Below are positions 1 through 11,580 of a stretch of DNA of 11,580 nucleotides, in pieces. The stretch lies in assembly GCA_002687935.1 (NCBI GenBank), contig NZBN01000005.1, positions 2,578-14,157 of the forward strand, read 5' to 3'. The first letter of the stretch is position 1. Each line of letters starts with the position of its first letter. The position numbers and the translations under genes were made by a program. The stretch is from Methanobacteriota archaeon (GTDB lineage Archaea > Undinarchaeota > Undinarchaeia > Undinarchaeales > Undinarchaeaceae). Below the pieces are notes generated by a model that did no database searches, was not told where the DNA came from, and was given only the letters and a program-made list of their open reading frames with translations.

Positions 1-498
1 CTCTGCTGTATAAATGCTAGTGTCTACCTGAGCTCGTTGTCCCTCTTTTGTAACTTCTGCAGTGTATTTAGAAAGATCAGACTGAATTCTCTGGGACTCC
101 TTTGTTATTTCAGCACTATATTCAGATAAGTCAGATTGAATCCTCTGAGCTTCCTTCTGCACCTCGGCACTATATTCTGAAATATCTGACTGTATTCTCT
201 GGCCTTCTTTGGATACTTCTGCACTATATACTCCCAACTCTGTCTGATATCTTTGACTAGCTTCTTGAGCCTCTGCTTGGAAATTAGCTACACCTGTCTG
301 AACCCGCTGTCCTTCTTTCTGAACTTCTGCACTATATTTGGCAAGTTCAGTTTCAACTCTACTTGATTCCTTGCCAAGCAAAGTAGTAAACCTTGAGGCA
401 TCTCCCTGAATCCTCTGCATTTCTTTTGCCATATCTTCCTGATGCTTCTTTAGATCACCCTCAAATCCTGCACTGGCTTTTGATATATCTTGTTGCCA
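1..498 (-). repeat. In-frame 54-nt / 18-aa tandem repeat (at least 9 full units plus a partial)
   Basis: Aromatic residues fall exactly every 54 nt (codons starting at 498 W, 444 H, 390 F, 336 Y, 282 F, 228 Y, 174 Y, 120 Y, 66 Y, 12 Y). Consensus is about YSAEVxKExQRIQSDLSx. Confidence 0.92.
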
Positions 499-1797
499 TT
501 TACTTAAAGCAGAGTTAGCTCTCTGGAGTTCTTGAGCAGCTGTCTGAATAGTTGCCTGAGTCATCTCCTCGTCTTCATCTGCAAGCCAAGTTTGTGCAGA
601 AGAAGAAGAACCAGTTCCACCAGGAGCACCATCTATTAAATTTTTAGCTTTATCCAGAGCATCCTGAAAATCAGCAGGAATCTCTGGTATTGCAATTGTA
701 GGAATACTTGTTGATAAAGAAAATTCAGTCGGTAGCGTTATAGAACTAACGTCGATAGCCGCTGGCACACTAGTCCCAACAGCAATTGCACTCGGCAATG
801 TTGATGTAACAGAATAACCAGTTGGTAATGAAGTAGCGAGTGAATCTGTAAAACCTCCAGGCAATGAGGAAGATATAGCCATACTACCAGGTAAGGAAGT
901 CGCCAATGAAGAAAATCCATCAGGTAAACTACTCGATATCGCTATACCACTTGGCAAAGAAGAACTAAGACTTATAGTCACATCTGGTAGACTACTTGAT
1001 ATAGCTATCGCACTTGGCAATGCGGAATCAACTGTTATTGCAGTTGGTAAACTAGCAGTGCTCATATCTATTGCTGTAGGGAGACTGCTTGATAGTGCCA
1101 CTGCACTTGGCAATGAAGAATTAACTACTATTGCGGTAGGTAAGCTATATGATCCCATACTAATTGCAGTAGGCAGAGCACTAGATATTGCTAAGTCTGC
1201 ACTAACATCCGCAATAGCATCAAATACCGTAGTATCTGAATCAAGATCAGTAGGTAATAGAGAATTTAAATTCGCCATTTTATTATGCAAAAGTTGTGCT
1301 GATGCAAATAAAATTACTGCATGATATAACTCACTAGGAAAATTACTTATACTTGTACCATCATAGGCAACTGTAACATCAGGTAAGACTATACTTACTA
1401 TCGCTGTTTGCGTTGCTGTTGGGGTAGGTTTAACAATAAGCACCTTATTATCAATGTAATAAACAGGAGAATCTTTTCCTGCATAATAGATACTATCAGT
1501 ATTGATAACATTACTCCGATAAGCAGCATTCACTGGGCTACATTTTAAAGCCTCGGCAGTTCCATCGTCAGCATTATTCCTGACCACATCTATTATTTTG
1601 CTATTAGTAGTAAGTGAAAGAGTCGTAGGAGAATTGCTTAAAGTACTCGCCTGAGCAAATAATGGTAATAAATTTGGATTGGCCTTCTCAATCTGATTTA
1701 TAACCCACTTAACTCCAGCCCTTAGGAACGAAGTAATAGCTGCGTCTTTGCCAGTTACACTTCCTGCATAATAACTTATATCTGTACTAAAAGCCAT
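1..1797 (-). CDS. Virion structural protein, >=599 aa, C-terminus beyond the window: probable head-tail adaptor N-terminal domain fused to Ser/Leu/Pro repeats and an 18-residue helical repeat
   Basis: Hand translation from ATG at 1797 (TAATG overlap with the upstream stop) gives no stop to position 1: MAFSTDISYYAGSVTGKDAAITSFLRAGVKWVINQIEK...DSIYYAGKDSPVYYIDNKVLIVKPTP...ISNFPSELYHAVILFASAQLLHNKM...repeats...AQTWLADEDEEMTQATIQTAAQELQRA...YSAEVQKEAQRIQSDLSE. It is missing from the ORF track because it has no stop in the window. The CDS is secure; the adaptor call rests on position after the capsid gene and remembered motif pattern (about 0.5). Confidence 0.9.
   Translation of the reverse strand, partial: MAFSTDISYYAGSVTGKDAAITSFLRAGVKWVINQIEKANPNLLPLFAQASTLSNSPTTLSLTTNSKIIDVVRNNADDGTAEALKCSPVNAAYRSNVINTDSIYYAGKDSPVYYIDNKVLIVKPTPTATQTAIVSIVLPDVTVAYDGTSISNFPSELYHAVILFASAQLLHNKMANLNSLLPTDLDSDTTVFDAIADVSADLAISSALPTAISMGSYSLPTAIVVNSSLPSAVALSSSLPTAIDMSTASLPTAITVDSALPSAIAISSSLPDVTISLSSSLPSGIAISSSLPDGFSSLATSLPGSMAISSSLPGGFTDSLATSLPTGYSVTSTLPSAIAVGTSVPAAIDVSSITLPTEFSLSTSIPTIAIPEIPADFQDALDKAKNLIDGAPGGTGSSSSAQTWLADEDEEMTQATIQTAAQELQRANSALSKWQQDISKASAGFEGDLKKHQEDMAKEMQRIQGDASRFTTLLGKESSRVETELAKYSAEVQKEGQRVQTGVANFQAEAQEASQRYQTELGVYSAEVSKEGQRIQSDISEYSAEVQKEAQRIQSDLSEYSAEITKESQRIQSDLSKYTAEVTKEGQRAQVDTSIYTAE
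676..1179 (-). repeat. In-frame 10-12-aa (S/A/T)-(L/V/I)-P repeat array, 16 units
   Basis: Pro codons start at 1173, 1140, 1110, 1080, 1047, 1017, 987, 954, 924, 891, 861, 825, 795, 765, 732 and 702. Example units: SLPTAIVVNS, SLPSAVALSS, ALPSAIAISS, SLPSGIAISS, SLPGSMAISS. Confidence 0.92.
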
Positions 1798-2000
1798 TAG
1801 GTTTCTTGTCCTTGTCTAGTCCTAGCCATTTTTTCGCTCTTACTCATTTTCTTAGCTTTAGGAATTTTTCTATTGACTTTTTTAGCTGTAGATAACAATT
1901 TACCACGAGATACTCCCATCTTAGAGGCGTAGTACTTTATAATAGACATCCTATTCTTTCTCATAGCAGTCATGAGCACTTTCGCTACTGCACTAGTCAT
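1797..2000 (-). CDS. Small basic protein, 67 aa (13 K, 6 R, 2 E), possible helix-turn-helix
   Basis: Both ends overlap neighbours (ATGA at the start, TAATG at the stop), which indicates translational coupling. The segment YYASKMGVSRGKLLSTAKK resembles an HTH turn (A-x-x-h-G-V-S-R). Confidence 0.8.
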   Translation of the reverse strand: MTSAVAKVLMTAMRKNRMSIIKYYASKMGVSRGKLLSTAKKVNRKIPKAKKMSKSEKMARTRQGQET

Positions 2001-2131
2001 TTTTTACTCTTCTTGGTAACTTTTATCTTACCACGATCTTTTATATTTTGTTGTCTGCGGCTATTATCATTGACTTCTTCTTTTCCAGATTGCCAGGGGC
2101 CACCGACATCATTACTTGTTACTATTTTCAT
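1997..2131 (-). CDS. Hypothetical 44-aa protein MKIVTSNDVGGPWQSGKEEVNDNSRRQQNIKDRGKIKVTKKSKK (not in the ORF track)
   Basis: ATG at 2131 is preceded by the SD-like GAAAGGT. Its TGA overlaps the ATG of the next gene (ATGA). It fills the gap after the capsid gene. Confidence 0.75.
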   Translation of the reverse strand: MKIVTSNDVGGPWQSGKEEVNDNSRRQQNIKDRGKIKVTKKSKK

Positions 2132-2148
2132 ATTTACCTTTCCAGTAT

Positions 2149-2169
2149 GGGGGGCCATAAAGACCCCCC
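2149..2169 (-). other. GC-rich stem-loop just downstream of the capsid stop codon
   Basis: The minus strand reads GGGGGGUC-UUUAU-GGCCCCCC (8 bp including one G-U). No U-tract follows. Confidence 0.7.
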
Positions 2170-2182
2170 TTAAATTACTGAA

Positions 2183-3610
2183 TTATGCGAACTTTAACAA
2201 GGTATGAGTTTCTGGTAAAGATATTTCTAGACCTGCTTCGGTCAAGATTTGATCTTTCCGTCCATCAACATTGTTATTTTGCACATTAGTGATAATGTGC
2301 GTATCTCTCGATGTGCCATTAGCAGCTAACGGACGATAAGCTACATTCTTTAGATCAACCATAACGGCATAGTCTTCCCACATACCCCTGAATAAAGGTT
2401 GCTCGACTAAATGTAAATCACCGTAAAGAGTATTTACTCGTGTTACATTATGCCCGAATGAACCCTTAACATTCTGGATATCTACGGAATAACCATTTGA
2501 TCCACCGCTAGTTGTAGCTGTGTGACCAAGTGCCATTGTGTTGCCTAAGAAAGAGCTTCCGCCAAGTTTGTTAAAGTAACTTAATACTTTACGTGAAGCA
2601 AGTACAAGTTTGTTTCCACTATTACCTGATTCAGGTGAGAAAACATCTTCCATTGCGTCAATAAAGTCATCATACGTTGAGGAAGCATAAGTAAAGGTCT
2701 TAATCTTTCCATAAGCTTCTGTGTAAGGTACGATTCCCCACGAACGACGAACAGGCCCTGTTGATGTAGAATCATCTGATCCTATACCAAATAACATTGC
2801 ATGCTCTAAGTCCATTTTGTGTTCCATTAACTTTTCTTGCCAGACTCGCTTGTACTCATTAGATACACCACGATAGCGGGTAGCTAATGAAGTTCCACTA
2901 AATAAAGAGATTGCCGTTTTAAATATCTGACAATATCCTTCTCTATCATAGAACTCGTCTTTCCATCCTTCAGGATCAGTTGATCCCTCAGCCCATGCTG
3001 AACCTACAACCTGACATTTAGCATCCGCACGATGAATCAACTTGGAAGCAGAAGCTTCAGTTATTTCACCACTAACAGATGATGTAGGTTTGTAGACAAC
3101 TTTAATAAAGGTTAAGTCAATCTCAGCATAAGCAGAATTGCTTAAATCTGGATCAGCATTAACTTTATAATATGCAATTGCAGCGGTTTCTGAGCCAACA
3201 CCAGCATCGGTACCGTTAGCATCATATTCTACTTCAATAGCTACCATTTGCCCACTTAATATAAAATTAGGGGCAACAGCAGTTGTTACAACACGACCAT
3301 ATTTGTCATAGAGACAGTCCACCTGCAGGTTAGTAAGATTAAAGTTAGCATCTGTTCCACTATGAGCTGAACTAGTCATAGCTGTTTTAACTTCAAAATT
3401 ACGACGCTGCCATTGATGACGCTGCTCTAAAAATTTAAAAACAGGATCATCAGTAGGTTTCTTTGCTACTTTAGACAAGTATGTAAAGAATGGAGACTGT
3501 TTAGGAGCGAGTTCAGCAACTTTTTCTCCAAAATTGTACATTCGTCTTGAATGATCAATTGAGGATGACTGCATACCGCCACCAGCGGTAATACTATATA
3601 CGTTTGCCAT
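2183..3610 (-). CDS. Major capsid protein (HK97 fold, SU10/DUF5309-like), 475 aa
   Basis: Follows portal and scaffold, with SD GGAG ahead of the ATG. Motifs SPFFTYLSKVAKKPTDDPVFKFLEQR, VGSAWAEGS, YCQIFKT, EHKMDLEHAMLFG and DGRKDQILTEAGLEISLPETH match my recollection of this capsid family. Confidence 0.9.
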   Translation of the reverse strand: MANVYSITAGGGMQSSSIDHSRRMYNFGEKVAELAPKQSPFFTYLSKVAKKPTDDPVFKFLEQRHQWQRRNFEVKTAMTSSAHSGTDANFNLTNLQVDCLYDKYGRVVTTAVAPNFILSGQMVAIEVEYDANGTDAGVGSETAAIAYYKVNADPDLSNSAYAEIDLTFIKVVYKPTSSVSGEITEASASKLIHRADAKCQVVGSAWAEGSTDPEGWKDEFYDREGYCQIFKTAISLFSGTSLATRYRGVSNEYKRVWQEKLMEHKMDLEHAMLFGIGSDDSTSTGPVRRSWGIVPYTEAYGKIKTFTYASSTYDDFIDAMEDVFSPESGNSGNKLVLASRKVLSYFNKLGGSSFLGNTMALGHTATTSGGSNGYSVDIQNVKGSFGHNVTRVNTLYGDLHLVEQPLFRGMWEDYAVMVDLKNVAYRPLAANGTSRDTHIITNVQNNNVDGRKDQILTEAGLEISLPETHTLLKFA

Positions 3611-3629
3611 CTTTAACTCCTAGTTAGTT

Positions 3630-4562
3630 TTAACTCCAAGGATTCTGCTTATTATAGTCAGAAATCATACTGTCTATAATCTTATCTTCTACAGAGCCCT
3701 CATTCTGTCTCGTTTGAGAAGGCATAACTCCCATCGAAGCAGGTATTTGCTGTGCCCTCTTAACCTGTTGAAACTCACCAGAGGGTGAATTCGTAGGTTG
3801 CTGAGGGGAGCCATAGCCCCTATCCGATGCATATAATTTCCAAAGGTTGTCAAGACTAATAGAATTCGGATCAGACATAACTCTAACGAAATCATCTGCA
3901 ACTTGTGAATCAACTTTATATTGATCCATAATTTGACTTCTTATTCCGTTCATTTGTTCTGCCTGCTTTTGTTCAGCGTCACGACGCTGTATATCATCTT
4001 GACGATCCTTGCGTAACTTTCCTCTCTCATCTTCCATCATAGCCATTTGGTACTCGAACTGTAAGTTCTTATATTCATCCATTTGGTCACGCCAAACCTG
4101 CTCACTTTGAACAAATCTAGCACTTTCAGATGAGGGGTCGGATAACGCCTCGTCCATTGAGAAATTATAAGGTTTCTGCGGCTTCTCTGGTGGGTCTGGA
4201 AACTCTGGTTCGGGTTCCGCTACTGGTTCAGGCTCTTGCTGAGCAGGTGTCTGCTGAGTTGCAAGCTGATTGAACTGCTGCTGCAATTGATCACGCTCAT
4301 TCTTCATTTTATCAGCCTGAGACTGCCAATATTGGTATCTTACTTCATCATTATCCTTGGGTGCTTCAACTTGAACTTCCTGCTGGGGTACAGATTCTGG
4401 CTCAGCAATTGCTTGCTCAACTTCATCTGTTCCTTCAAAAGCATCAGCTACAGACCCCTTTTCACCACCGAATATGACATCATCAACTAATGAGCTATCA
4501 TCCTGTAAGTCAACTGAATGGACTTCAGGTTGAGAGGTTGTCAATTGTTCTGTTTCTGCCAT
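3630..4562 (-). CDS. Probable capsid scaffolding protein, 310 aa
   Basis: Lies between portal and capsid genes. Acidic, Q/E/P-rich, with predicted helical/coiled-coil segments (YWQSQADKMKNERDQLQQQF). SD AGGAG. Confidence 0.75.
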   Translation of the reverse strand: MAETEQLTTSQPEVHSVDLQDDSSLVDDVIFGGEKGSVADAFEGTDEVEQAIAEPESVPQQEVQVEAPKDNDEVRYQYWQSQADKMKNERDQLQQQFNQLATQQTPAQQEPEPVAEPEPEFPDPPEKPQKPYNFSMDEALSDPSSESARFVQSEQVWRDQMDEYKNLQFEYQMAMMEDERGKLRKDRQDDIQRRDAEQKQAEQMNGIRSQIMDQYKVDSQVADDFVRVMSDPNSISLDNLWKLYASDRGYGSPQQPTNSPSGEFQQVKRAQQIPASMGVMPSQTRQNEGSVEDKIIDSMISDYNKQNPWS

Positions 4563-4570
4563 AATATCTC

Positions 4571-6763
4571 CTATTTTTTAGACTGCTTCTTCTTAGGGCT
4601 TGAAGAAGGTGAGCCTGGTTTAGAGGAAGCTTCCGCTACCTCTTTTTTAACTTGCCCTAAAGCGTCATCTAGGCGTTTCTCGAATAGAGTGCCAGACATT
4701 TTCGCCCGATTTTCAGTTCCCTTCAAATTGGACTTCGTTTTTTCGATCTCGGCTTTCATTTTGGCGTGATAAATTTCACGCTCTCTTGTCTGCAAGTCTC
4801 CTTGCATACTTTTTATAGTCTCAGTTGCTTGCTCCAATTGGCCTTTCAACTGATCTATTAAATCTGTTCTTTGTAATACGCCTTCCATATCGAAGACCTC
4901 TGTCTTCTTTAATACTTCTTGCTTATCAATAATACCCTTTTCATACGCATCCATATACATTTCAAGTTGAGCCATCCTATTCGTCGGCATCGTTGACCCT
5001 GTAACTACAACTACATCGTACTTTCCAACTGTTATGTCATTTAAAACTTTAATCTCGCCTGAATGGTCATCGTACATCCGTTTATTAACGACATACTCGC
5101 TCATACTGTTATTAGGCTGAATTAACCTAACAATCTTCTGAGTAGTGTATAATTGCTGCATCATAGGAATAACTATCTGTCCCAACCTGTTTAATCCAGC
5201 CTCTATATCGGCAAGTTTACTCTTCATCTTTCGCTGACCAAACTCATCTAGACTTACAGTGGCCTTATATGTATGAGGAGCAACAGCTGAATTACCCATT
5301 GTCATCTCATATAAACCCAATTGATGATCAATGTCATTCTTAGCAGTAGTCTCATTGTTATATAGCTCGTTCGGTAGGGGAGTTGGCTGAACTGGTGTTG
5401 GCTGCCCTTGATCAAAATCAACCTCGATGGCTACTCCAGGCTGGGCCCATTTCTGCTCGAACTCCCTCATATCTACCGAACCTGATGGTATTAAAATCTT
5501 TGTATTAGTACTAGTGGTGGCATGGGCAATAATTAAACTTCTCGTTTTATTGATGTATTCCTGCATACCCTTAACCATACGAACATCTGACATTGGATAG
5601 GGAGTACGGGTATGTTGGTTCATAAAGAACACAATAGGATACTTATCAATTGGGAGGATACGAGAATATAAATGTTTATCGCCCATGATCACACATTGCT
5701 TAATTCTTTTTGTTGGGACTGTGACCACTTCAATAGCTCCCGATTGGACAAGATCAGCAAATGTTATCTCCTGGACATCAGGCTCTTCTGGTAACTCTAG
5801 GTTACCCTGAGCTCTACCTTGCTCTAATTGCTGCTGATAAATTTGCTGTAATTGCTGAATAGCAGCCTGAGCTTCTTCTGGCTCTACAACAGTCTGCCCC
5901 TGAATTATCCAGGCGGGTTGTCGTAGATACTCCTCAAACTCCTTATCATCCAATAAGTCCTCATCCCCAGTCATACTCTCATAGACCCTATGATGATCAA
6001 TCATTAAAGAATAATATCTTTCATATCCCCTAATATACTCATCGCTATCACCAAAGTTTGCTATTGTCTGTACTTCTGGAGACTCAGGCCAAGTCGTCTC
6101 ACCATCGTCTTCTCTTCCAGTGGATGGCCTGTCTGTCATAAAATTTTCTGTAGAGGCATTACCAATAGCCTTCTTATACATTGGGTATAAGGCCTTAGCC
6201 TGGTCTTTAGTGTAAAGCCTTGATATAATTACATTTTCTGCATCATCACCATGAGGACTTCTAGAATTAGGGTCTATATAGACATCTAGCGGATCAATAT
6301 CATGTATACAAACTTCGCCCTTCCCCATATCCATCATTGGGTCTATATACACTAACGCACAGCCAAGTCCAGTAACATAATAATCGTCTACAACTCTTCT
6401 TAAAACAGTATTACCCTCTGATATCTGCCATATATATTCTAATAATCCATTTACAGCCTGTGCTACTTTGTTATCACTATCTTCTCTTGGGGATACTCTG
6501 AATTGAGGTTTATTTGCAGTTATGAGAGCCTTAGCAGCCTCTACTGCTGGATGGATACGATTAACAACAAGGGCTGCTTGTCCTCGTTCTTCTAAAATTC
6601 GCCTCTGATCTGACGTCCATTGCTTACCTAATCTGAATTCACGATCTTCTTGAGCATGGTGTGCCCATCGTTCACGCTTTTGAGAGTAGGTTTTCCAGAG
6701 ACTTTGCGTCTCTTCAACGAGTTTTTTGCCCGATTTCTGTGATTTGGAGTTATAAGCCATCAT
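4571..6763 (-). CDS. Portal protein, P22-like, about 730 aa (start at 6763 or 6760)
   Basis: Directly after TerL. N-terminal EDREFRLGKQW...LVVNRIHPAVE...KPQFRVSPRE pattern, KYDVVVVTGSTMPTNRMAQL, and a long C-terminal coiled coil (barrel-like), all typical of P22-type portals. Confidence 0.9.
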   Translation of the reverse strand: MMAYNSKSQKSGKKLVEETQSLWKTYSQKRERWAHHAQEDREFRLGKQWTSDQRRILEERGQAALVVNRIHPAVEAAKALITANKPQFRVSPREDSDNKVAQAVNGLLEYIWQISEGNTVLRRVVDDYYVTGLGCALVYIDPMMDMGKGEVCIHDIDPLDVYIDPNSRSPHGDDAENVIISRLYTKDQAKALYPMYKKAIGNASTENFMTDRPSTGREDDGETTWPESPEVQTIANFGDSDEYIRGYERYYSLMIDHHRVYESMTGDEDLLDDKEFEEYLRQPAWIIQGQTVVEPEEAQAAIQQLQQIYQQQLEQGRAQGNLELPEEPDVQEITFADLVQSGAIEVVTVPTKRIKQCVIMGDKHLYSRILPIDKYPIVFFMNQHTRTPYPMSDVRMVKGMQEYINKTRSLIIAHATTSTNTKILIPSGSVDMREFEQKWAQPGVAIEVDFDQGQPTPVQPTPLPNELYNNETTAKNDIDHQLGLYEMTMGNSAVAPHTYKATVSLDEFGQRKMKSKLADIEAGLNRLGQIVIPMMQQLYTTQKIVRLIQPNNSMSEYVVNKRMYDDHSGEIKVLNDITVGKYDVVVVTGSTMPTNRMAQLEMYMDAYEKGIIDKQEVLKKTEVFDMEGVLQRTDLIDQLKGQLEQATETIKSMQGDLQTREREIYHAKMKAEIEKTKSNLKGTENRAKMSGTLFEKRLDDALGQVKKEVAEASSKPGSPSSSPKKKQSKK

Positions 6764-6776
6764 TTAATATTACAAC

Positions 6777-8315
6777 CTACATAGTTAACCAGTCAAGTAT
6801 TTTATTGCTTTTTATTTCAGCCCCCTTCTTTGGGTCAAATTCATCCCTTTTTATCCTACAAGGTCTCGAACCTTCTAATGCAGTCCATATCGCATCCATC
6901 ACATCATCATTCTTTCCTCTGGGGTAAGATAAGAACTCTTGTTGAGCTGTCAAATCCTGGGGTCTGAAATAAAATTGACCCTTAGCAAAGATGGGTACTA
7001 ATGATAACAGTCTTTCACTCTTTCTGTTCCGTGGTTTTACACCTTTTTCTAACCCTGGTATATACAGATTCTTCTCTAGCATCAATGCTCTAGTCGCACT
7101 CCTTAGAGCTTCCTGATATGCAACTGTCTCAATTTTCATTCTTTTTGGATGGAATCTTTCATAAATATCAATAATCTTTTGAGGTTGTCTCGCAGGATCG
7201 AGCCTTTCCCTAAAAATGTCGACAACATACTTGTTATTATCAGCATCAATAGCAATGGTAGCAATAACAAAATAGTCAGCACGGGCACTAAGGCTTGATG
7301 CAGGATCAACTCCAGTATAGAGTTCGACTGGTATAATTTTCTTTTCATCTCCCACCTCTCTTACCAAACAAGGTTGGCTATTAATTCTTTCGAAATCGTA
7401 ATGATGCAATTTTATATAATCTGGTTTAAATGGGGCATCATCTGGAGACTGTGCAATATTCATGTATTCCTGGTAGAATCCATTTATATTACCAACACTC
7501 TCAAATTCACTTTTTATTTGTAATATCCTATCTTTGGGGAACCTTTCGGGCCAGATACTATTCTCATCATCATCCCAGATACTGTACCAGAGCGTCTCCC
7601 AAGTTGGACTATCCTTCGCCCAATATAAGAAACAATCCTCAGAAATCACAGTACCAATCATTATTATTCTACCATCATCAGAAAGTGAAGGTATAACAGC
7701 CTCCGTCATCCATTTCCTATTCTTAGTTCTACCCTCAGGCGTAAAAGCATTCAACTCAGACTCGAAATCATCAACAATAATTACATTGGGCCTCGTGTCC
7801 CCCTCAATAAACCCACGAACCCTCTGCCCAGTACCAACAGCAACTATACGAGTCCCATTCTTGAGTATAATATCTGCACCAGTCCATCGCTTAGACGTAG
7901 CTGAACTAAAATCTCCAAATATATGCTTGAAATTATCACTATGTTCTAGATGATACTTTATTCTAGATAAGAAGTTTACTGACTGAGCTTGAGACTCGGA
8001 TACAACAACAATAAACAAATCCTCTGTAGGCTTCTTGTATGCTATTTTATATAAAGGAAAGATCAAAGAACACACGGTACTCTTGGCAGTCCCCCTAGGG
8101 GCTGCAATAAGTATACGCTTCGTCTCATCATTCTTTAAATTTTTATATATATCTCTATGAAAAGACGGAGTATCCTTAGCTAAGGCAGTTGGGAAACAAT
8201 ACTTCCCAAACCAACCCATGTCACGCTGGAATTCTTTCTTCTCTTTGTCAAGAGTATACGAAGCCTCGTAATCAATATTTCGGTTTTTTAGTCCTTTTTG
8301 GACTATTGCTTCCAT
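6777..8315 (-). CDS. terL: Terminase large subunit, 512 aa
   Basis: Walker A APRGTAKST, Walker B IIVDDFE, coupling motif IGT, RNase H-like nuclease motifs YTGVDPASS and NDDVMDA. Confidence 0.95.
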   Translation of the reverse strand: MEAIVQKGLKNRNIDYEASYTLDKEKKEFQRDMGWFGKYCFPTALAKDTPSFHRDIYKNLKNDETKRILIAAPRGTAKSTVCSLIFPLYKIAYKKPTEDLFIVVVSESQAQSVNFLSRIKYHLEHSDNFKHIFGDFSSATSKRWTGADIILKNGTRIVAVGTGQRVRGFIEGDTRPNVIIVDDFESELNAFTPEGRTKNRKWMTEAVIPSLSDDGRIIMIGTVISEDCFLYWAKDSPTWETLWYSIWDDDENSIWPERFPKDRILQIKSEFESVGNINGFYQEYMNIAQSPDDAPFKPDYIKLHHYDFERINSQPCLVREVGDEKKIIPVELYTGVDPASSLSARADYFVIATIAIDADNNKYVVDIFRERLDPARQPQKIIDIYERFHPKRMKIETVAYQEALRSATRALMLEKNLYIPGLEKGVKPRNRKSERLLSLVPIFAKGQFYFRPQDLTAQQEFLSYPRGKNDDVMDAIWTALEGSRPCRIKRDEFDPKKGAEIKSNKILDWLTM

Positions 8316-9115
8316 TACGCTTCCTCTTTATCACTTTCTTCTTTTTTTTCTGCTGCCTGTTCCAACCCATGCTTCTCCTCCGTTTGTGTTGCTTTAAAAA
8401 GTTTCTTCTTCTCTTTGATATCAGCAAGAGTGTGTTCTACGGTAGAAGCTTCTATCTGGTGAGTAGTAATAACCCTACCCTTACTCTTCATATCGTTCAT
8501 ATCCATTAACTTATCCAATATGGATACTGCTATCTTGGAATCACCATCCTTACCCATCTTATCCCCATCCCAGTCCATAGCTCTGTCTAATACGGCTGCT
8601 AGGGCTCTAGCTGTATCCATCTTACCTATTGGAAATTGCTCGACTATCTTATCTAATTCATCGTTTACCATGCGTCTAAAGACCTCCATTCTCATTGTCT
8701 TATTTAGTGAATATCGTTTATTATCAGGCAAATGCCCGAATACTAACCTAATAGCAGCTTTCTTTGTCATACCAGGCTGTGCCATAAGATGTGCTAACTT
8801 CTTAAAGTTATCACTCTTCGACACAAACTTACCACGATTATTTTTACCACTCTCGGTATAGTTGTTAATTCTTCCTATTGATTTTATATCATCCTCACCA
8901 GAACGTACGAATGACGGCCCCCAAGGATACTTTACCTTGAGAGTCCCACCCTTCATTTGACTCCTCTTTAGGCATACGGATACCTCTTCATCTGACGATA
9001 TCCCGTAATCTCCCTCTGAAACATCAAAAGGGTGTTTATACGACAAACCCAGCTCATCCGCCTCTTTACGTGAATAAACTGGGTATTCTTTTCCAGATAC
9101 GATTTCGTATCTCAC
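8315..9115 (-). CDS. Probable terminase small subunit with an extra N-terminal region, 266 aa, GTG start
   Basis: Immediately upstream of terL with a TAATG overlap. Helical C-terminal half (TARALAAVLDRAMDW...IAVSILDKLMDM) followed by a charged tail. The start is uncertain because the SD-like GAGGT lies 15 nt upstream. Confidence 0.6.
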   Translation of the reverse strand: MRYEIVSGKEYPVYSRKEADELGLSYKHPFDVSEGDYGISSDEEVSVCLKRSQMKGGTLKVKYPWGPSFVRSGEDDIKSIGRINNYTESGKNNRGKFVSKSDNFKKLAHLMAQPGMTKKAAIRLVFGHLPDNKRYSLNKTMRMEVFRRMVNDELDKIVEQFPIGKMDTARALAAVLDRAMDWDGDKMGKDGDSKIAVSILDKLMDMNDMKSKGRVITTHQIEASTVEHTLADIKEKKKLFKATQTEEKHGLEQAAEKKEESDKEEA

Positions 9116-9124
9116 AAATAAAAG

Positions 9125-9232
9125 TTACTTACCTCTTTGACTATACGAACCACGTACAACCTCAGGGGCTTTCTTCTCAACTTTCTTTACAGCTTTTTTT
9201 ACAGCTTTCACTGCTTTTTTCTCTTTCGCCAT
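9125..9232 (-). CDS. 35-aa cationic peptide MAKEKKAVKAVKKAVKKVEKKAPEVVRGSYSQRGK (not in the ORF track)
   Basis: Strong SD AAGGAG 6 nt before the ATG at 9232; TAA at 9127-9125. Fills the endolysin-TerS gap. Net charge about +10. Confidence 0.8.
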   Translation of the reverse strand: MAKEKKAVKAVKKAVKKVEKKAPEVVRGSYSQRGK

Positions 9233-9258
9233 TCCTGACTCCTTCCATACAAGCATTA

Positions 9259-9729
9259 TTATGCTTCCATTGCTCGTCTAATCCAACCAACAATAAAGTC
9301 AGCTAGCTTAGGTTTTCTTGTTATCAGATCAGTGTAGAATAGAATCCTAAACACTTTTAGTCTTGAATCATCAATCCTTTTTGATTCTCTTAGAGTATTC
9401 CTTCCTATAAGACCATCTACGACTAACTTGCACCCCTTCGAGTTACAAGCTTTCTGTAAAATCTTTACAGCTCTTCGCTGTCCCATATTAACTACCATGT
9501 CAAAATATGTCTCTTGTAAACTACCTGGAAGAGAGGAAGCCTTTGATGGCGTCCAATACTCCTTCTCATATATCTCAGTAGCCCGTTCTTTCGTAAGATT
9601 CTTTATATCTTCCTTAGGATGACTCCTCTTAGCTATGCCATACTTAGTTTCCCCGCCAGGATCACTCGGATGGTCTACATATCCACCCTCTCTTTTAAGG
9701 ATACCACCTATTAAATCTTTAAACTCCAT
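9259..9729 (-). CDS. Endolysin, glycoside hydrolase family 108, with a peptidoglycan-binding C-terminal part, 156 aa
   Basis: Signature EGGYVDHPSDPGGETKYGI, then FDMVVNMG, AVKILQ...VDGLIG and a terminal GWIRRA. The ATG at 9729 overlaps the upstream TGA (TGATG), so it is preferred over the TTG at 9732. Confidence 0.92.
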   Translation of the reverse strand: MEFKDLIGGILKREGGYVDHPSDPGGETKYGIAKRSHPKEDIKNLTKERATEIYEKEYWTPSKASSLPGSLQETYFDMVVNMGQRRAVKILQKACNSKGCKLVVDGLIGRNTLRESKRIDDSRLKVFRILFYTDLITRKPKLADFIVGWIRRAMEA

Positions 9730-10034
9730 CAAGTATTTCTCCCGTTTATCCTACCTTTGAGATACGCAAGATCATCAGTAACATCGTTTAATTCTTTCAC
9801 AATATCTTCCCTATGTCTTTGACTAAGATCATCTGATTTATTCCATCTTTCGATCAATTTTATTGTAATCCCCTCAACATTTTGCATTGTCGTTTCAATT
9901 TTAGAAATATGCACTCTCATATCATCTAAATCTTCATTTTGGAGCTTCTGGCTCTTGATCAGATTCATTATCATCATTACAAACAATGATACAATTATTC
10001 CAATCGCACCGTACTCCATGTATACTTCCATCAT
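9729..10034 (-). CDS. Holin-like membrane protein, 101 aa (one N-terminal TM helix plus a coiled coil)
   Basis: Hydrophobic stretch YGAIGIIVSLFVMMIMNLI followed by a heptad-rich soluble region; translationally coupled to the endolysin. Confidence 0.65.
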   Translation of the reverse strand: MMEVYMEYGAIGIIVSLFVMMIMNLIKSQKLQNEDLDDMRVHISKIETTMQNVEGITIKLIERWNKSDDLSQRHREDIVKELNDVTDDLAYLKGRINGRNT

Positions 10035-10086
10035 ACAACTTTAGCCTTGCATCCCCAGTGTTATTCATAATCCACTCAACATTAGG

Positions 10087-10107
10087 AAAAATAAGAGGGG
10101 CCCCTCT
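10087..10107 (-). terminator. Possible weak intrinsic terminator or attenuator after the 71-aa gene
   Basis: Perfect 14-bp palindrome AGAGGGGCCCCTCT (10094-10107). On the minus strand it gives a 5-bp stem with a GGCC loop followed by UAUUUUU. Confidence 0.45.
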
Positions 10108-10321
10108 AAAACGGTACTTCATCGATCTCAGCATTAACGCTCGCATTGTGCGAGATTTCGCCATTATTAAGACTCTCGAAGAGTCCGACGACTCTGTGGT
10201 AATGATCTTCTCTTCTTGTCTGAGCCATGAAGCCCGTCATTTCTTCCATATCTCTATAAATCTTTTGATAATCCAACGATTCATCGCTTCTAATATAGTC
10301 ATTAATATTGAAACTAGACAA
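10106..10321 (-). CDS. Hypothetical acidic protein, 71 aa, TTG start, C-terminus IDEVPF
   Basis: SD AGGAG 7 nt before the TTG; the SD overlaps the stop codon of the upstream 44-aa gene. Composition is protein-like. Confidence 0.8.
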   Translation of the reverse strand: MSSFNINDYIRSDESLDYQKIYRDMEEMTGFMAQTRREDHYHRVVGLFESLNNGEISHNASVNAEIDEVPF

Positions 10322-10331
10322 TGATTTTCTC

Positions 10332-10466
10332 CTATTTCCCCTGACCTCTGTATCTCTTAGTATAACGCCTTTTAGAGCCCTTGTGACTGTATTTTGTTAG
10401 TTTACTACTCCCTTGAGTAGTCTTTTTACCTCGTTTCTGAGGTTTGTAACCCTGTGATGTCTGCAT
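10332..10466 (-). CDS. 44-aa very basic peptide MQTSQGYKPQKRGKKTTQGSSKLTKYSHKGSKRRYTKRYRGQGK (not in the ORF track)
   Basis: ATG at 10466, TAG at 10334-10332 fused to the next gene's SD (TAGGAG). 10 K, 5 R and no D/E. First ORF downstream of the leftward promoter. Its own SD is weak. Confidence 0.75.
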   Translation of the reverse strand: MQTSQGYKPQKRGKKTTQGSSKLTKYSHKGSKRRYTKRYRGQGK

Positions 10467-10525
10467 AATTAGAATCCAAAATCTTATCTTAAGAAGGAAG
10501 TCGTTTATTTTTACCTATAATTTAT

Positions 10526-10555
10526 ATAATAATATACACTATATGCAATAGTCAA
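10526..10555 (-). promoter_or_regulatory. Sigma70-like leftward promoter for the late operon
   Basis: TTGACT (10555-10550), an 18-nt spacer, then TATTAT (10531-10526), in an AT-rich context about 60 nt upstream of the ATG at 10466. Confidence 0.6.
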
Positions 10556-10615
10556 GGCTTACTTTATCCTTCTTCGTTAAGATTAACAATATCAACAGTA
10601 TAAGGAAACCCTGGA

Positions 10616-10759
10616 TTTTTTTAAAAAATATATTTTAGAATAGAGTAGGGAATCCTACTAGCTCGGTTTCCCAAAAATTAATTTAGATTGGGATTACGAG
10701 ATATACAGGTTGCTACACCCCCTCGAATTTCACGGGGTGGGTTGCCGTCCCCGTTGAAA
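10616..10759. repeat. Cluster of short inverted repeats and palindromes in the divergent intergenic region
   Basis: TTTTTTAAAAAA 10617-10628; AAAATATATTTT 10625-10636; AGTAGG-GAAT-CCTACT 10644-10659; TCCCAA...TTGGGA 10669-10693 enclosing AAATTAATTT; CACCCC...GGGGTG 10716-10739; TTTCACGGGG...CCCCGTTGAAA 10728-10759. Confidence 0.75.
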
Positions 10760-10793
10760 CTCTCGTTGGCTTGCAAGATAGCCCCCCTCTAAC

Positions 10794-10840
10794 TACTGCA
10801 AGTAGTTTAGCTTGCAGTATCATAGTATCTATGATATCTT
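10794..10840 (+). promoter_or_regulatory. Sigma70-like rightward promoter overlapped by two operator-like inverted repeats
   Basis: -35 TTGCAG (10812-10817), a 17-nt spacer, -10 TATCTT (10835-10840). IR1 is TACTGCAAG-N8-CTTGCAGTA (10794-10819); IR2 is TATCATAG-TAT-CTATGATA (10818-10836). Confidence 0.6.
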
Positions 10841-10866
10841 TCTCACTTAACCATAAGGTAAACCAT

Positions 10867-11235
10867 ATGGCTGACGCAATAAAGACTGAAAATAACATCG
10901 TAGACGATGCTACATTCAGCAATACTGCAGCAGGCACCACCTTCCGTGGCGACTTTGAACCAGAGCGTGACCGCACTGGCAAGATTCTGTACACACAGAA
11001 CTTCAAAGTACGCACACTGCAAGTTGACCGCACATTCCCAGCTGTTATCACAGCTAAGAGTGTTGCTAAGATTGCCAAGGCTTCAGAGAAGCTTGAGCAA
11101 CCTCTCAACTCTGCTGAAGGTGTTGATTACCGCCTTAGTGGCGAACCCACACAGTACGAAGGTACTGATGAGTTACCACCAGCGGCAATTGCCTACTATA
11201 AGCCTATCGTCCTCAGGGACTCCATCAGTTTCTGA
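10867..11235 (+). CDS. Hypothetical protein, 122 aa (MADAIKTENN...VLRDSISF), probably the first gene of the divergent (early?) module
   Basis: The ATG at 10867 has SD TAAGGT upstream and lies downstream of the predicted promoter, so the track's longer TTG start at 10771 is unlikely. Strongly biased codon usage; a terminator follows. Confidence 0.85.
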   Translation: MADAIKTENNIVDDATFSNTAAGTTFRGDFEPERDRTGKILYTQNFKVRTLQVDRTFPAVITAKSVAKIAKASEKLEQPLNSAEGVDYRLSGEPTQYEGTDELPPAAIAYYKPIVLRDSISF

Positions 11236-11257
11236 TGTAGGCTATGGTAGCACCTGC

Positions 11258-11307
11258 AAGATATACATACGAGCCTCGCAAGCTACGGATGTGTGTATAT
11301 CTTTTTT
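11258..11307 (+). terminator. Intrinsic terminator
   Basis: AAGATATACATAC (11258-11270) pairs with GTGTGTATATCTT (11291-11303; one G-U), running into a T6 tract at 11302-11307. Confidence 0.75.
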
Positions 11308-11395
11308 ATTGTCTGTATATAGAGTCAGGGCGTTATAACAGTAACGCATAGGCTAGTACAGGCATATAATCCAATAGATAAGAGGTAATTAAACT

Positions 11396-11580
11396 ATGAT
11401 AAATGGATATTTAGCAAAATATTTTAAACATATAGCAGGGTGGAGCAGTCTGGTAGCTCGTCAGGCTGATAACCTGAAGGTCGTAGGTTCGAATCCTATC
11501 CCTGCAACAACATTGCTGTTAGTATATTCTAAGCATAGACGTATGTTGAAGCTGTGGCTCGCTGCAATACGGGGTTCAAA
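11396..11580 (+). CDS. Possible ORF (>=61 codons, open at the window edge) reading through the tRNA: MINGYLAKYFKHIAGWSSLVARQADNLKVVGSNPIPATTLLLVYSKHRRMLKLWLAAIRGS...
   Basis: SD GAGGT at 11382-11386, ATG at 11396, and no in-frame stop to 11580. Coding status is doubtful because the middle is simply a translated tRNA. Confidence 0.3.
   Translation, partial: MINGYLAKYFKHIAGWSSLVARQADNLKVVGSNPIPATTLLLVYSKHRRMLKLWLAAIRGS
11434..11510 (+). tRNA. tRNA with initiator (fMet)-type body but a GAU (Ile) anticodon; encoded 3' end is CAA, not CCA
   Basis: Full cloverleaf. Acceptor AGCAGGG/CCCTGCA with an A1xA72 mismatch; D stem GAGC/GCTC; anticodon stem TCAGG/CCTGA with loop CT-GAT-AA (anticodon 11468-11470); T arm GTAGG-TTCGAAT-CCTAT; discriminator A73 at 11507. 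Confidence 0.9.

Follow-up and report, generated by a model that had tools for sequence, protein, structure and literature searches.

A natural initiator-type tRNA gene with an isoleucine (GAU) anticodon on a marine phage contig

In initiator tRNAs, C34 is the main determinant for methionyl-tRNA synthetase (MetRS), and the unpaired 1:72 position allows these RNAs to exclude EF-Tu. Here, we describe a tRNA gene in which a body of this type carries GAU, an anticodon of isoleucine tRNA. It is encoded at positions 11434-11508 (+) of an 11,580-nt stretch of DNA (the window, i.e., the whole stretch that was analysed), which comprises positions 2578-14157 of the 14,157-nt contig NZBN01000005.1 (C5) of assembly GCA_002687935.1. 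The gene is a real phage initiator tRNA gene whose anticodon has been switched: a single base exchange, C34>G, turned CAU into GAU.

Initiator tRNAs with altered anticodons underlie engineered orthogonal translation initiation, and the only experimental system for an RNA that unites an initiator body with GAU stems from this field. In vivo, Escherichia coli metY(GAU) combined with an AUC-start reporter yielded 12266 units as compared to 7838 for the wild-type AUG:CAU pair (PMC3643588), in agreement with what the original prediction for this locus, made from the sequence alone, had stated about engineered initiators of this kind. In vitro, flexizyme-charged tRNAini-GAU initiates mainly at its cognate codon AUC (PMC11744186). 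While these RNAs share the initiator body and the GAU anticodon with the tRNA in the window, they are laboratory constructs, used together with a designed AUC reporter, whereas the window tRNA occurs naturally, on a phage, and the start codons inspected here include none that is cognate to it. A literature search found no paper on a natural, population-fixed initiator tRNA with an isoleucine anticodon.

An initiator body with the anticodon loop of tRNA-Ile

The gene and its distinguishing positions are as follows (L numbers are our handles for other sequences used in the comparison):

11434-11508 (+): tRNA gene with initiator (fMet-type) body and GAT anticodon, recognized by ARAGORN, Rfam and position numbering; identical in L269/L284, L271, L283, L289 and L290
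11434 (+): A1, unpaired versus A72 (11506), according to Rfam and numbering; A1xA72 together with CAT is also present in L254, L255, L258 and L259
11468-11470 (+): anticodon GAT; G34 (11468) is derived, with C in the sister-phage tRNAs L254-L259
11507-11510 (+): discriminator A73 followed by CAA, CCA not being encoded; ACAAC after position 72 is also found in the sister phage L162/L256

The only tRNA that ARAGORN called in the window is tRNA-Ile(gat) at 11434-11508 (+), and the gene matches Rfam family RF00005 with 63.5 bits (E 3.5e-12; gathering cut-off 29). Base positions were assigned by the standard tRNA numbering scheme. The acceptor stem is formed by A1xA72, G2-C71, C3-G70, A4-U69 and G5-7/C66-68, the D stem by G10-C25, A11-U24, G12-C23 and C13-G22, and the anticodon stem by U27-A43, C28-G42, A29-U41, G30-C40 and G31-C39, which close the loop C32 U33 G34 A35 U36 A37 A38. 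The T arm contains one wobble pair (G49.U65), and the remaining stem positions except 1:72 are Watson-Crick. Accordingly, 1:72 is the only non-canonical pair in the Rfam alignment; every other stem position pairs, and the tertiary-contact bases are all retained.

The likeness to E. coli tRNA-fMet (metZWV, metY) extends over the unpaired 1:72, G2-C71, C3-G70, A11-U24, A73, the loop CU...AA and the tertiary-contact bases. The window tRNA differs from it in having A1 instead of C1, A29-U41 instead of G29-C41 (two of the three initiator G-C pairs at 29-31/39-41 are therefore present), GAU instead of CAU and no encoded CCA. In pairwise alignments with the K-12 reference genes, identity amounted to 83.1% for metZ as compared to 55.8% for metT, 54.5% for ileV and 51.3% for ileX. 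A comparison with 5426 complete E. coli genomes placed the best match in the metZWV initiator cluster, between mltA and amiC, and the best matches in the phage database were genes annotated as tRNA-Met. By descent and architecture, the window tRNA is a member of the phage/bacterial initiator-tRNA family, whose anticodon it does not share.

Recognition by isoleucyl-tRNA synthetase (IleRS) depends strongly on the anticodon, A37, A38 and A73 and to a minor extent on C4-G69, U12-A23, C29-G41 and G16, whereas the formyltransferase relies on an unpaired 1:72 and on R11:Y24 (PMC9976931). All strong IleRS determinants (G34 A35 U36, A37, A38 and A73) are present in the window tRNA, and so are the initiator and formyltransferase elements A11-U24, G2-C71 and C3-G70. 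The minor IleRS determinants are replaced by A4-U69, G12-C23, A29-U41 and U16. E. coli ileV tRNA-Ile(GAU) resembles the window tRNA in GAU, A37, A38 and A73, but not in the 1:72 pair or in any of the minor determinants. In other words, a tRNA-Ile-type anticodon-loop identity resides on a body that is not that of a tRNA-Ile. The description given in the original prediction proved accurate as far as the initiator body (1x72 mismatch, G2-C71, C3-G70, A11-U24, A73, stems and loop; numbering and Rfam), the GAT anticodon and encoded CAA end (ARAGORN and numbering) and the lack of the tRNA-Ile elements C4-G69, U12-A23 and C29-G41 (numbering) are concerned.

The typing by ARAGORN as tRNA-Ile could be taken literally, in which case an anticodon shift would have turned an initiator gene into one for an elongator tRNA-Ile that decodes AUC/AUU. 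The step would be small, as shifts between methionine and isoleucine identity need position 34 only (PMC3923123, PMC9976931). Nevertheless, since the lineage keeps 1:72 unpaired, we regard an elongator role as very unlikely: the mismatch is retained as A1xA72, although selection for elongation should have favoured a change to a pairing base, the RNA is only 54.5% identical to E. coli tRNA-Ile, and tRNA-Ile(GAU) is normally abundant in bacteria and encoded in rRNA operons, as seen for ileV.

Recurrence and ancestry of the GAT allele

Public contigs were aligned to positions 11100-11580 of the window, and further assemblies were fetched by exact-protein look-up. An identical GAT gene is present in six assemblies that represent at least four sequencing runs and two studies, namely the window itself and the following:

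L269/L284: MEGAHIT k127 assembly of ERR594290, GAT
L271: Logan contig of ERR2752152, GAT
L283: 17.5-kb contig of ERR594345, GAT
L289: ERR594346, GAT
L290: Tara scaffold, GAT

An artefact, either a sequencing error or a chimera that arose in assembly at the conserved core of the tRNA, might be suspected because the gene lies only 72 nt from the contig end and because its core 30-mers are common to many bacterial tRNA-fMet genes. The latter are the source of a deep G>C signal at 11468, which consists of short contigs carrying the tRNA-fMet genes of other organisms. Against such an artefact stands a Logan contig of 4363 nt and depth 48.5, obtained in a different study (run X2), which spans 11100-11580, has G at 11468 and differs from the window at three positions only (11218, 11339 and 11353), none of them in the tRNA. 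Furthermore, the MEGAHIT k127 contigs of three other Tara runs keep the same junction together with GAT, and A at 11434 as well as G at 11468 recur in independent assemblies. A single-base error at 11468, which the original prediction had conceded as a caveat, is thereby excluded, and the probability of an artefact of either kind is close to negligible.

All contigs of the approximately 99.7%-identical population that reach the site carry GAT. They represent three haplotypes, one in which the tRNA is followed by a segment of 111 nt (L269/L284), one without it (window, L271, L283) and one with a single-nucleotide polymorphism (SNP) at 11412 (L289, L290), which diverge from each other by about 0.2-0.3%. 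Because the allele recurs in independent assemblies on three haplotypes, we conclude that it is fixed in a marine podophage population across several ocean samples and is neither an error nor a mutation of one genome.

The origin of the gene is revealed by its surroundings. The nearest relatives of the contig, L146, L148 and L206 (about 98% nucleotide identity) and L203 (93.5%), stay collinear with the window as far as about position 11409. From there on, the place of the tRNA is taken by an open reading frame (ORF) of 46 codons, which begins with the same Shine-Dalgarno sequence and ATG. A recombination breakpoint thus immediately precedes the tRNA, the surroundings of which contain the following elements:

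11381-11398 (+): conserved Shine-Dalgarno sequence and ATG of the relatives' small ORF, the frame of which runs here by accident into the tRNA
11399-11410 (+): recombination breakpoint; L146, L148, L206 and L203 align to 11409 and then diverge
11403-11433 (+): 31-nt 5' flank of the tRNA cassette; BLAST alignments of C5 with L254, L255, L258 and L259 start at C5 13980, which is window position 11403
11512-11580 (+): conserved element 3' of the tRNA, truncated at the contig end; 98.6% identical to L255 3886-3954 and continued in L271, L283 and L289

The tRNA is traversed by an open frame (11396-11578) that has a strong Shine-Dalgarno sequence and is called as a 65-aa protein in L271, the only sequence returned by exact-protein look-up of this frame. 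It is the relic start of the relatives' 46-codon ORF, which was interrupted when the tRNA cassette inserted, and it is unlikely to be a real gene.

A scan with the 3' half of the tRNA retrieved L254, L255, L258 and L259, sister podophages whose initiator tRNAs have A1xA72 and CAT and are preceded by the same 31 nt as the window tRNA. They agree with the window tRNA in the acceptor stem, the anticodon stem with A29-U41, the variable loop, the T arm and the uncoded CCA, as do L256 and L257, which also have CAT. L254, L255, L258 and L259 differ from it only in the D loop and at position 34: the sister tRNAs combine CAT with a D loop of 8 nt, the window tRNA combines GAT with one of 9 nt, the canonical bacterial initiator form. 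In the phages L162/L163, whose terminase is 92% identical at the amino acid level, a 93.6%-identical tRNA with C1xA72 and CAT is encoded elsewhere in the genome. All differences between the window tRNA and the CAT alleles reside in loops and none in stems. We also considered the sister CAT genes as tRNA-Ile2 of the lysidine type; this was ruled out by the unpaired 1:72, A11-U24 and the initiator-type sequence, the window body being 51% identical to ileX.

Since the sister CAT genes share A1xA72, A29-U41 and the uncoded CCA, these features are inherited rather than new, and since ACAAC after position 72 is shared with L162/L256, the CAA end is ancestral and not a mutated CCA. The three features are thus norms of the lineage, with C34>G and the change in the D loop as the only novelties, and the tRNA belongs to a small mobile cassette that moves among mosaic phages and whose ancestral anticodon was CAT. 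The original prediction had treated A1xA72, A29-U41 and the CAA end as special, but they are ordinary in the sister CAT genes and in phage initiator tRNAs. C1xA72 is near-universal in bacterial initiators, and the 1:72 states of phages are far more varied. We read these states at fixed offsets because the 3' ends reported by ARAGORN vary; among the matches listed from IMG/VR (L031-L145), 86 distinct initiator-like CAT tRNAs comprised 39 with CxA, 17 with U-A, 11 with UxU, 4 with AxA and 15 others in rarer states, so that mismatches and weak pairs predominate. The stem with A29-U41 was the commonest form among the matches listed (35 of 88 distinct initiator-like CAT tRNAs). The prediction had further held that CAT in close relatives would mark the G as an error or a private mutation. 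CAT is indeed found in the homologous sister genes, but the G allele is not private and is instead fixed in its population.

The segment of 111 nt that separates the tRNA from the conserved tail occurs in L269/L284 and at L255 3774-3885 and is absent from the window, L271 and L283. In L255 it is followed by the tail corresponding to window positions 11512-11580, in the same order as in L269, and within the one phage population it is an indel polymorphism. The conserved element itself extends to L271 4018-4110 (in window orientation) and L255 3886-3975, ending in the T-arm-like sequence GGTTCAAATCC. Each of the three marine runs with coverage of the stretch has versions of it, about 90% identical, on short contigs of high depth. 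We considered the element as a second tRNA and rejected this, as neither ARAGORN nor Rfam called it and its fold is no better than that of shuffled sequences (z = -0.83).

Location at a mosaic junction raises the possibility that the sequence serves a purpose other than translation, either as a recombination or attachment sequence or, as an RNA, as a source of tRNA fragments or as a decoy or resistant substrate for a VapC-type nuclease. Evasion of host tRNases has been proposed for phage tRNAs with changes in the anticodon loop, and tRNA-fMet is a target of enteric VapC (PMC10264068). An attachment role would be in line with a Logan contig that joins the 3' half of the tRNA to unrelated sequence and with L226 and L230, GAT copies that are truncated or degenerate like those which integration leaves behind. 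However, a GAU tRNA would be unable to replace a cleaved fMet tRNA, a full-length, perfectly paired cloverleaf exceeds what an attachment site needs, and a Pfam scan revealed no nuclease, ligase or integrase genes among the genes of C5. Roles of this type are thus quite improbable. The Logan contig mentioned above (run X1, 170 nt, depth 19) matches exactly from tRNA position 35 to 11580; it is joined at 11468/11469, and the unrelated sequence before the join ends in ...GGGAATC. Either a half-tRNA junction, for instance an attachment-site-like remnant, or a branch of the assembly graph could account for this contig.

Initiator bodies with anticodons other than CAU are rare in general. When IMG/VR (2.9 million viral contigs) was searched with the initiator body pattern, at least 115 matches, and in fact more, were obtained with CAT and none with GAT, so that the independent viral relatives for which the original prediction had proposed to search did not emerge. 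Two matches deviated from C34, both with TAT, and one from A35, with CTA on an A1xA72 body. Among 241 million metagenome records, the body with GAT was found on five contigs, two of them truncated or degenerate and three intact (L227, L228 and L229) and unrelated in context. In 185,579 species genomes, 19 bodies lacked C34 (4 GAT, 7 AAT, 8 TAT), many of them truncated, degenerate or at contig ends. As a rough estimate, sporadic non-CAU variants arise in about 1 in 10^3 to 10^4 genes. A recurrent, selected class of GAT/GAU initiators was rejected on these grounds, because G is no commoner than A or T at position 34 and the metagenome GAT matches are unrelated. The sporadic variants (GAT in L227, L229, L245/L228, L247 and L249; TAT in L279 and L280; CTA in L281) resemble the window tRNA in having an initiator-type body and a non-CAU anticodon. 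They differ from it in that they belong to unrelated lineages and are in many cases truncated, degenerate or at contig ends, and fixation across samples is seen for the window allele only.

Start codons and possible roles of the RNA

All candidate starts were listed across the whole of C5 (about 14 genes) and in the 277 nt beyond the window in L271, corresponding to about 14.4 kb or a third of the genome. The genes for terminase, portal, capsid and endolysin, the gene after the portal and the tail-side genes begin at an ATG only a few codons away from the preceding stop, with a Shine-Dalgarno sequence in front of it in all cases except the portal. The sole ATC beside a Shine-Dalgarno sequence (C5 65-847) is directly followed by a better-spaced ATG, and ATG with a Shine-Dalgarno sequence is likewise the start of the next ORFs past the tRNA in L271 (in those 277 nt) and L255. 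No ATC- or ATT-initiated gene was found in the 14.2 kb of C5 or the next 277 nt, about 30 kb of the genome being outside this view, and the inspected third contains no gene that lacks ATG, GTG and TTG and starts at a codon matching the tRNA. ORFs with a Shine-Dalgarno sequence followed by ATC or ATT, named in the original prediction as a sign of use, are therefore absent from C5 and from the next ORFs of L271 and L255.

As the 14.4 kb at hand contain no gene that requires an AUC or AUU start and the novelty of the tRNA is confined to C34 and the D loop, we consider it likeliest, albeit tentatively, that GAU is a tolerated change-of-specificity or loss-of-function allele that has lost its function at AUG, rather than part of a dedicated private start-codon system. 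The ancestral CAT, the single GAT lineage, the background of sporadic variants and the absence of target codons from the inspected sequence all support such a tolerated allele. A phage initiator tRNA of the fMet type arrived within the small mobile cassette, which in the sister phages has it with CAU. The substitution C34>G converted the anticodon to GAU, and this change is fixed in the marine podophage population. With the loss of C34, charging by MetRS and reading of AUG are predicted to be lost, while the strong determinants for IleRS and those for initiation are kept, so that any translational role left to the RNA would be that of an isoleucine-charged initiator at AUC and, with lower efficiency, at AUU. 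The GAU allele, presumably close to neutral, would have been carried along in a successful phage lineage.

Several points weigh against a merely tolerated allele. Phage genomes usually shed useless DNA. The GAT gene is free of decay, with every stem paired and the tertiary-contact bases kept, and if two to four independent changes had fallen at random, the chance of no stem change would be about 0.04-0.2 by an arithmetic estimate. In the six assemblies, no polymorphism occurs in the 75-nt tRNA as compared to three SNPs in the 134 nt upstream, a difference that is not significant. Fixation across samples and haplotypes counts toward function, and the approximately 30 kb outside our view include the rightward early region, of which the tRNA is the first gene. 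Finally, the activity of metY(GAU) at AUC (PMC3643588) leads us to expect an active rather than an inert RNA. On the other hand, the haplotypes have diverged by so little that a disabled gene would not yet show decay.

The proposal put forward in the original prediction was that of a natural orthogonal initiator with which the phage starts translation at AUC/AUU. Such an initiator in use would be charged with isoleucine, formylated and brought to the P site by IF2, and its targets would be phage genes outside our view or AUU-start genes of the host. In E. coli, infC and pcnB are genes of the latter type. The body, the anticodon and the reality of the gene stand as proposed. All initiator determinants are kept together with the strong IleRS determinants (identity sets in PMC9976931), and engineered GAU initiators work at AUC (PMC3643588, PMC11744186); if active, the window tRNA would accordingly be expected to act as an isoleucine-charged initiator at AUC and more weakly at AUU. 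The allele is fixed, with at least four runs and three haplotypes, and its gene has not decayed. Moreover, the tRNA lies on the + strand just past the conserved regulatory region (Shine-Dalgarno sequence and ATG), and hence rightward co-transcription is probable from its position. A scan for sigma-70 promoters and terminators around the tRNA found no + strand promoter, which is uninformative as phage promoters may differ.

What speaks against an orthogonal initiator in use is the absence of ATC/ATT starts from the genes of C5 and the next ORF, the use of CAT by the sister phages, the lack of a second GAT lineage among the 2.9 million viral contigs, the finding that genome variants without C34 have G no more often than A or T, and the absence of the minor IleRS determinants C4-G69, U12-A23, C29-G41 and G16. 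In addition, G34 favours an alternative fold: the predicted minimum-energy structure of the unmodified RNA is not a cloverleaf and holds G34 in an alternative helix, and initiator transcripts with G34 are prone to misfold unless the fold is stabilized (PMC11744186). On balance, an orthogonal initiator in use appears doubtful.

Were the RNA active, it would constitute a natural reassignment of a start codon by a virus and a ready-made scaffold for orthogonal initiators. An isoleucine initiator in use would provide a private start codon for genes in the early region of the phage outside our view or, alternatively, force the expression of host AUU-start genes such as that for IF3 and thus rewire initiation fidelity in the infected cell. 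If the RNA is inert, it illustrates that a phage tRNA cassette can lose its function by one base change and yet spread across ocean samples, and automatic annotation, which labels the window tRNA a plain tRNA-Ile, would call for caution.

The phage contig and other altered initiator bodies

The identity of C5 follows from these genes:

2183-3610 (-): SU10-type major capsid protein gene (Pfam PF17236, E 1e-30)
4571-6763 (-): P22-like portal gene (Pfam PF16510, E 1.3e-67)
6777-8315 (-): large terminase gene (Pfam Terminase_6C; 496 relatives on viral contigs)
9259-9732 (-): endolysin gene with GH108 and peptidoglycan-binding domains (Pfam PF05838, E 9e-26, and PF09374)

On the basis of portal, SU10 capsid, terminase and GH108 endolysin, C5 is a fragment of a tailed bacteriophage, as the original prediction had assumed, and the endolysin domains indicate that its host is a bacterium. 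The other contigs of the metagenome-assembled genome (MAG) are archaeal, with intron-bearing tRNAs, an archaeal-type initiator with A1-U72 and an ordinary tRNA-Ile(GAU) on contig C2, and C5 has almost certainly been mis-binned into this DPANN archaeal MAG. A tblastx comparison revealed no contig of the MAG other than C5 that resembles the related phages, and a scan of viral contigs with sequence from beyond the window matched nothing, so the rest of the phage genome was not recovered. No cultured phage is close, the portal being at most about 30% identical to any. The 496 terminase relatives in IMG/VR are mostly marine.

Some of the altered initiator bodies found elsewhere merit a description of their own. 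At L227 1429-1505, a canonical initiator body (C1xA72, three G-C pairs, CCA) with GAT occupies the third place in a bacterial tRNA cluster of the order Leu-Ser-X-Asp-Phe. The metagenome contig L228 (4866-4940) and a betaproteobacterial MAG (L245 1270-1347) share one odd tRNA with GAT and the acceptor and anticodon stems of the window tRNA, which has U1.G72, U73 and a CCC end and adjoins genes without Pfam matches and one for a ParB-domain protein; Pfam searches with the neighbours of the GAT tRNAs in L228 and L229 yielded nothing informative. Two IMG/VR phage contigs encode initiator-like bodies with TAT (L279 2341-2414 and L280 7630-7704), in L279 beside a cluster of five other tRNAs. A further IMG/VR phage contig (L281 5209-5283) carries an initiator-like tRNA with A1xA72, the A29-U41 stem and the amber anticodon CTA, which could be an amber-reading initiator or a suppressor.

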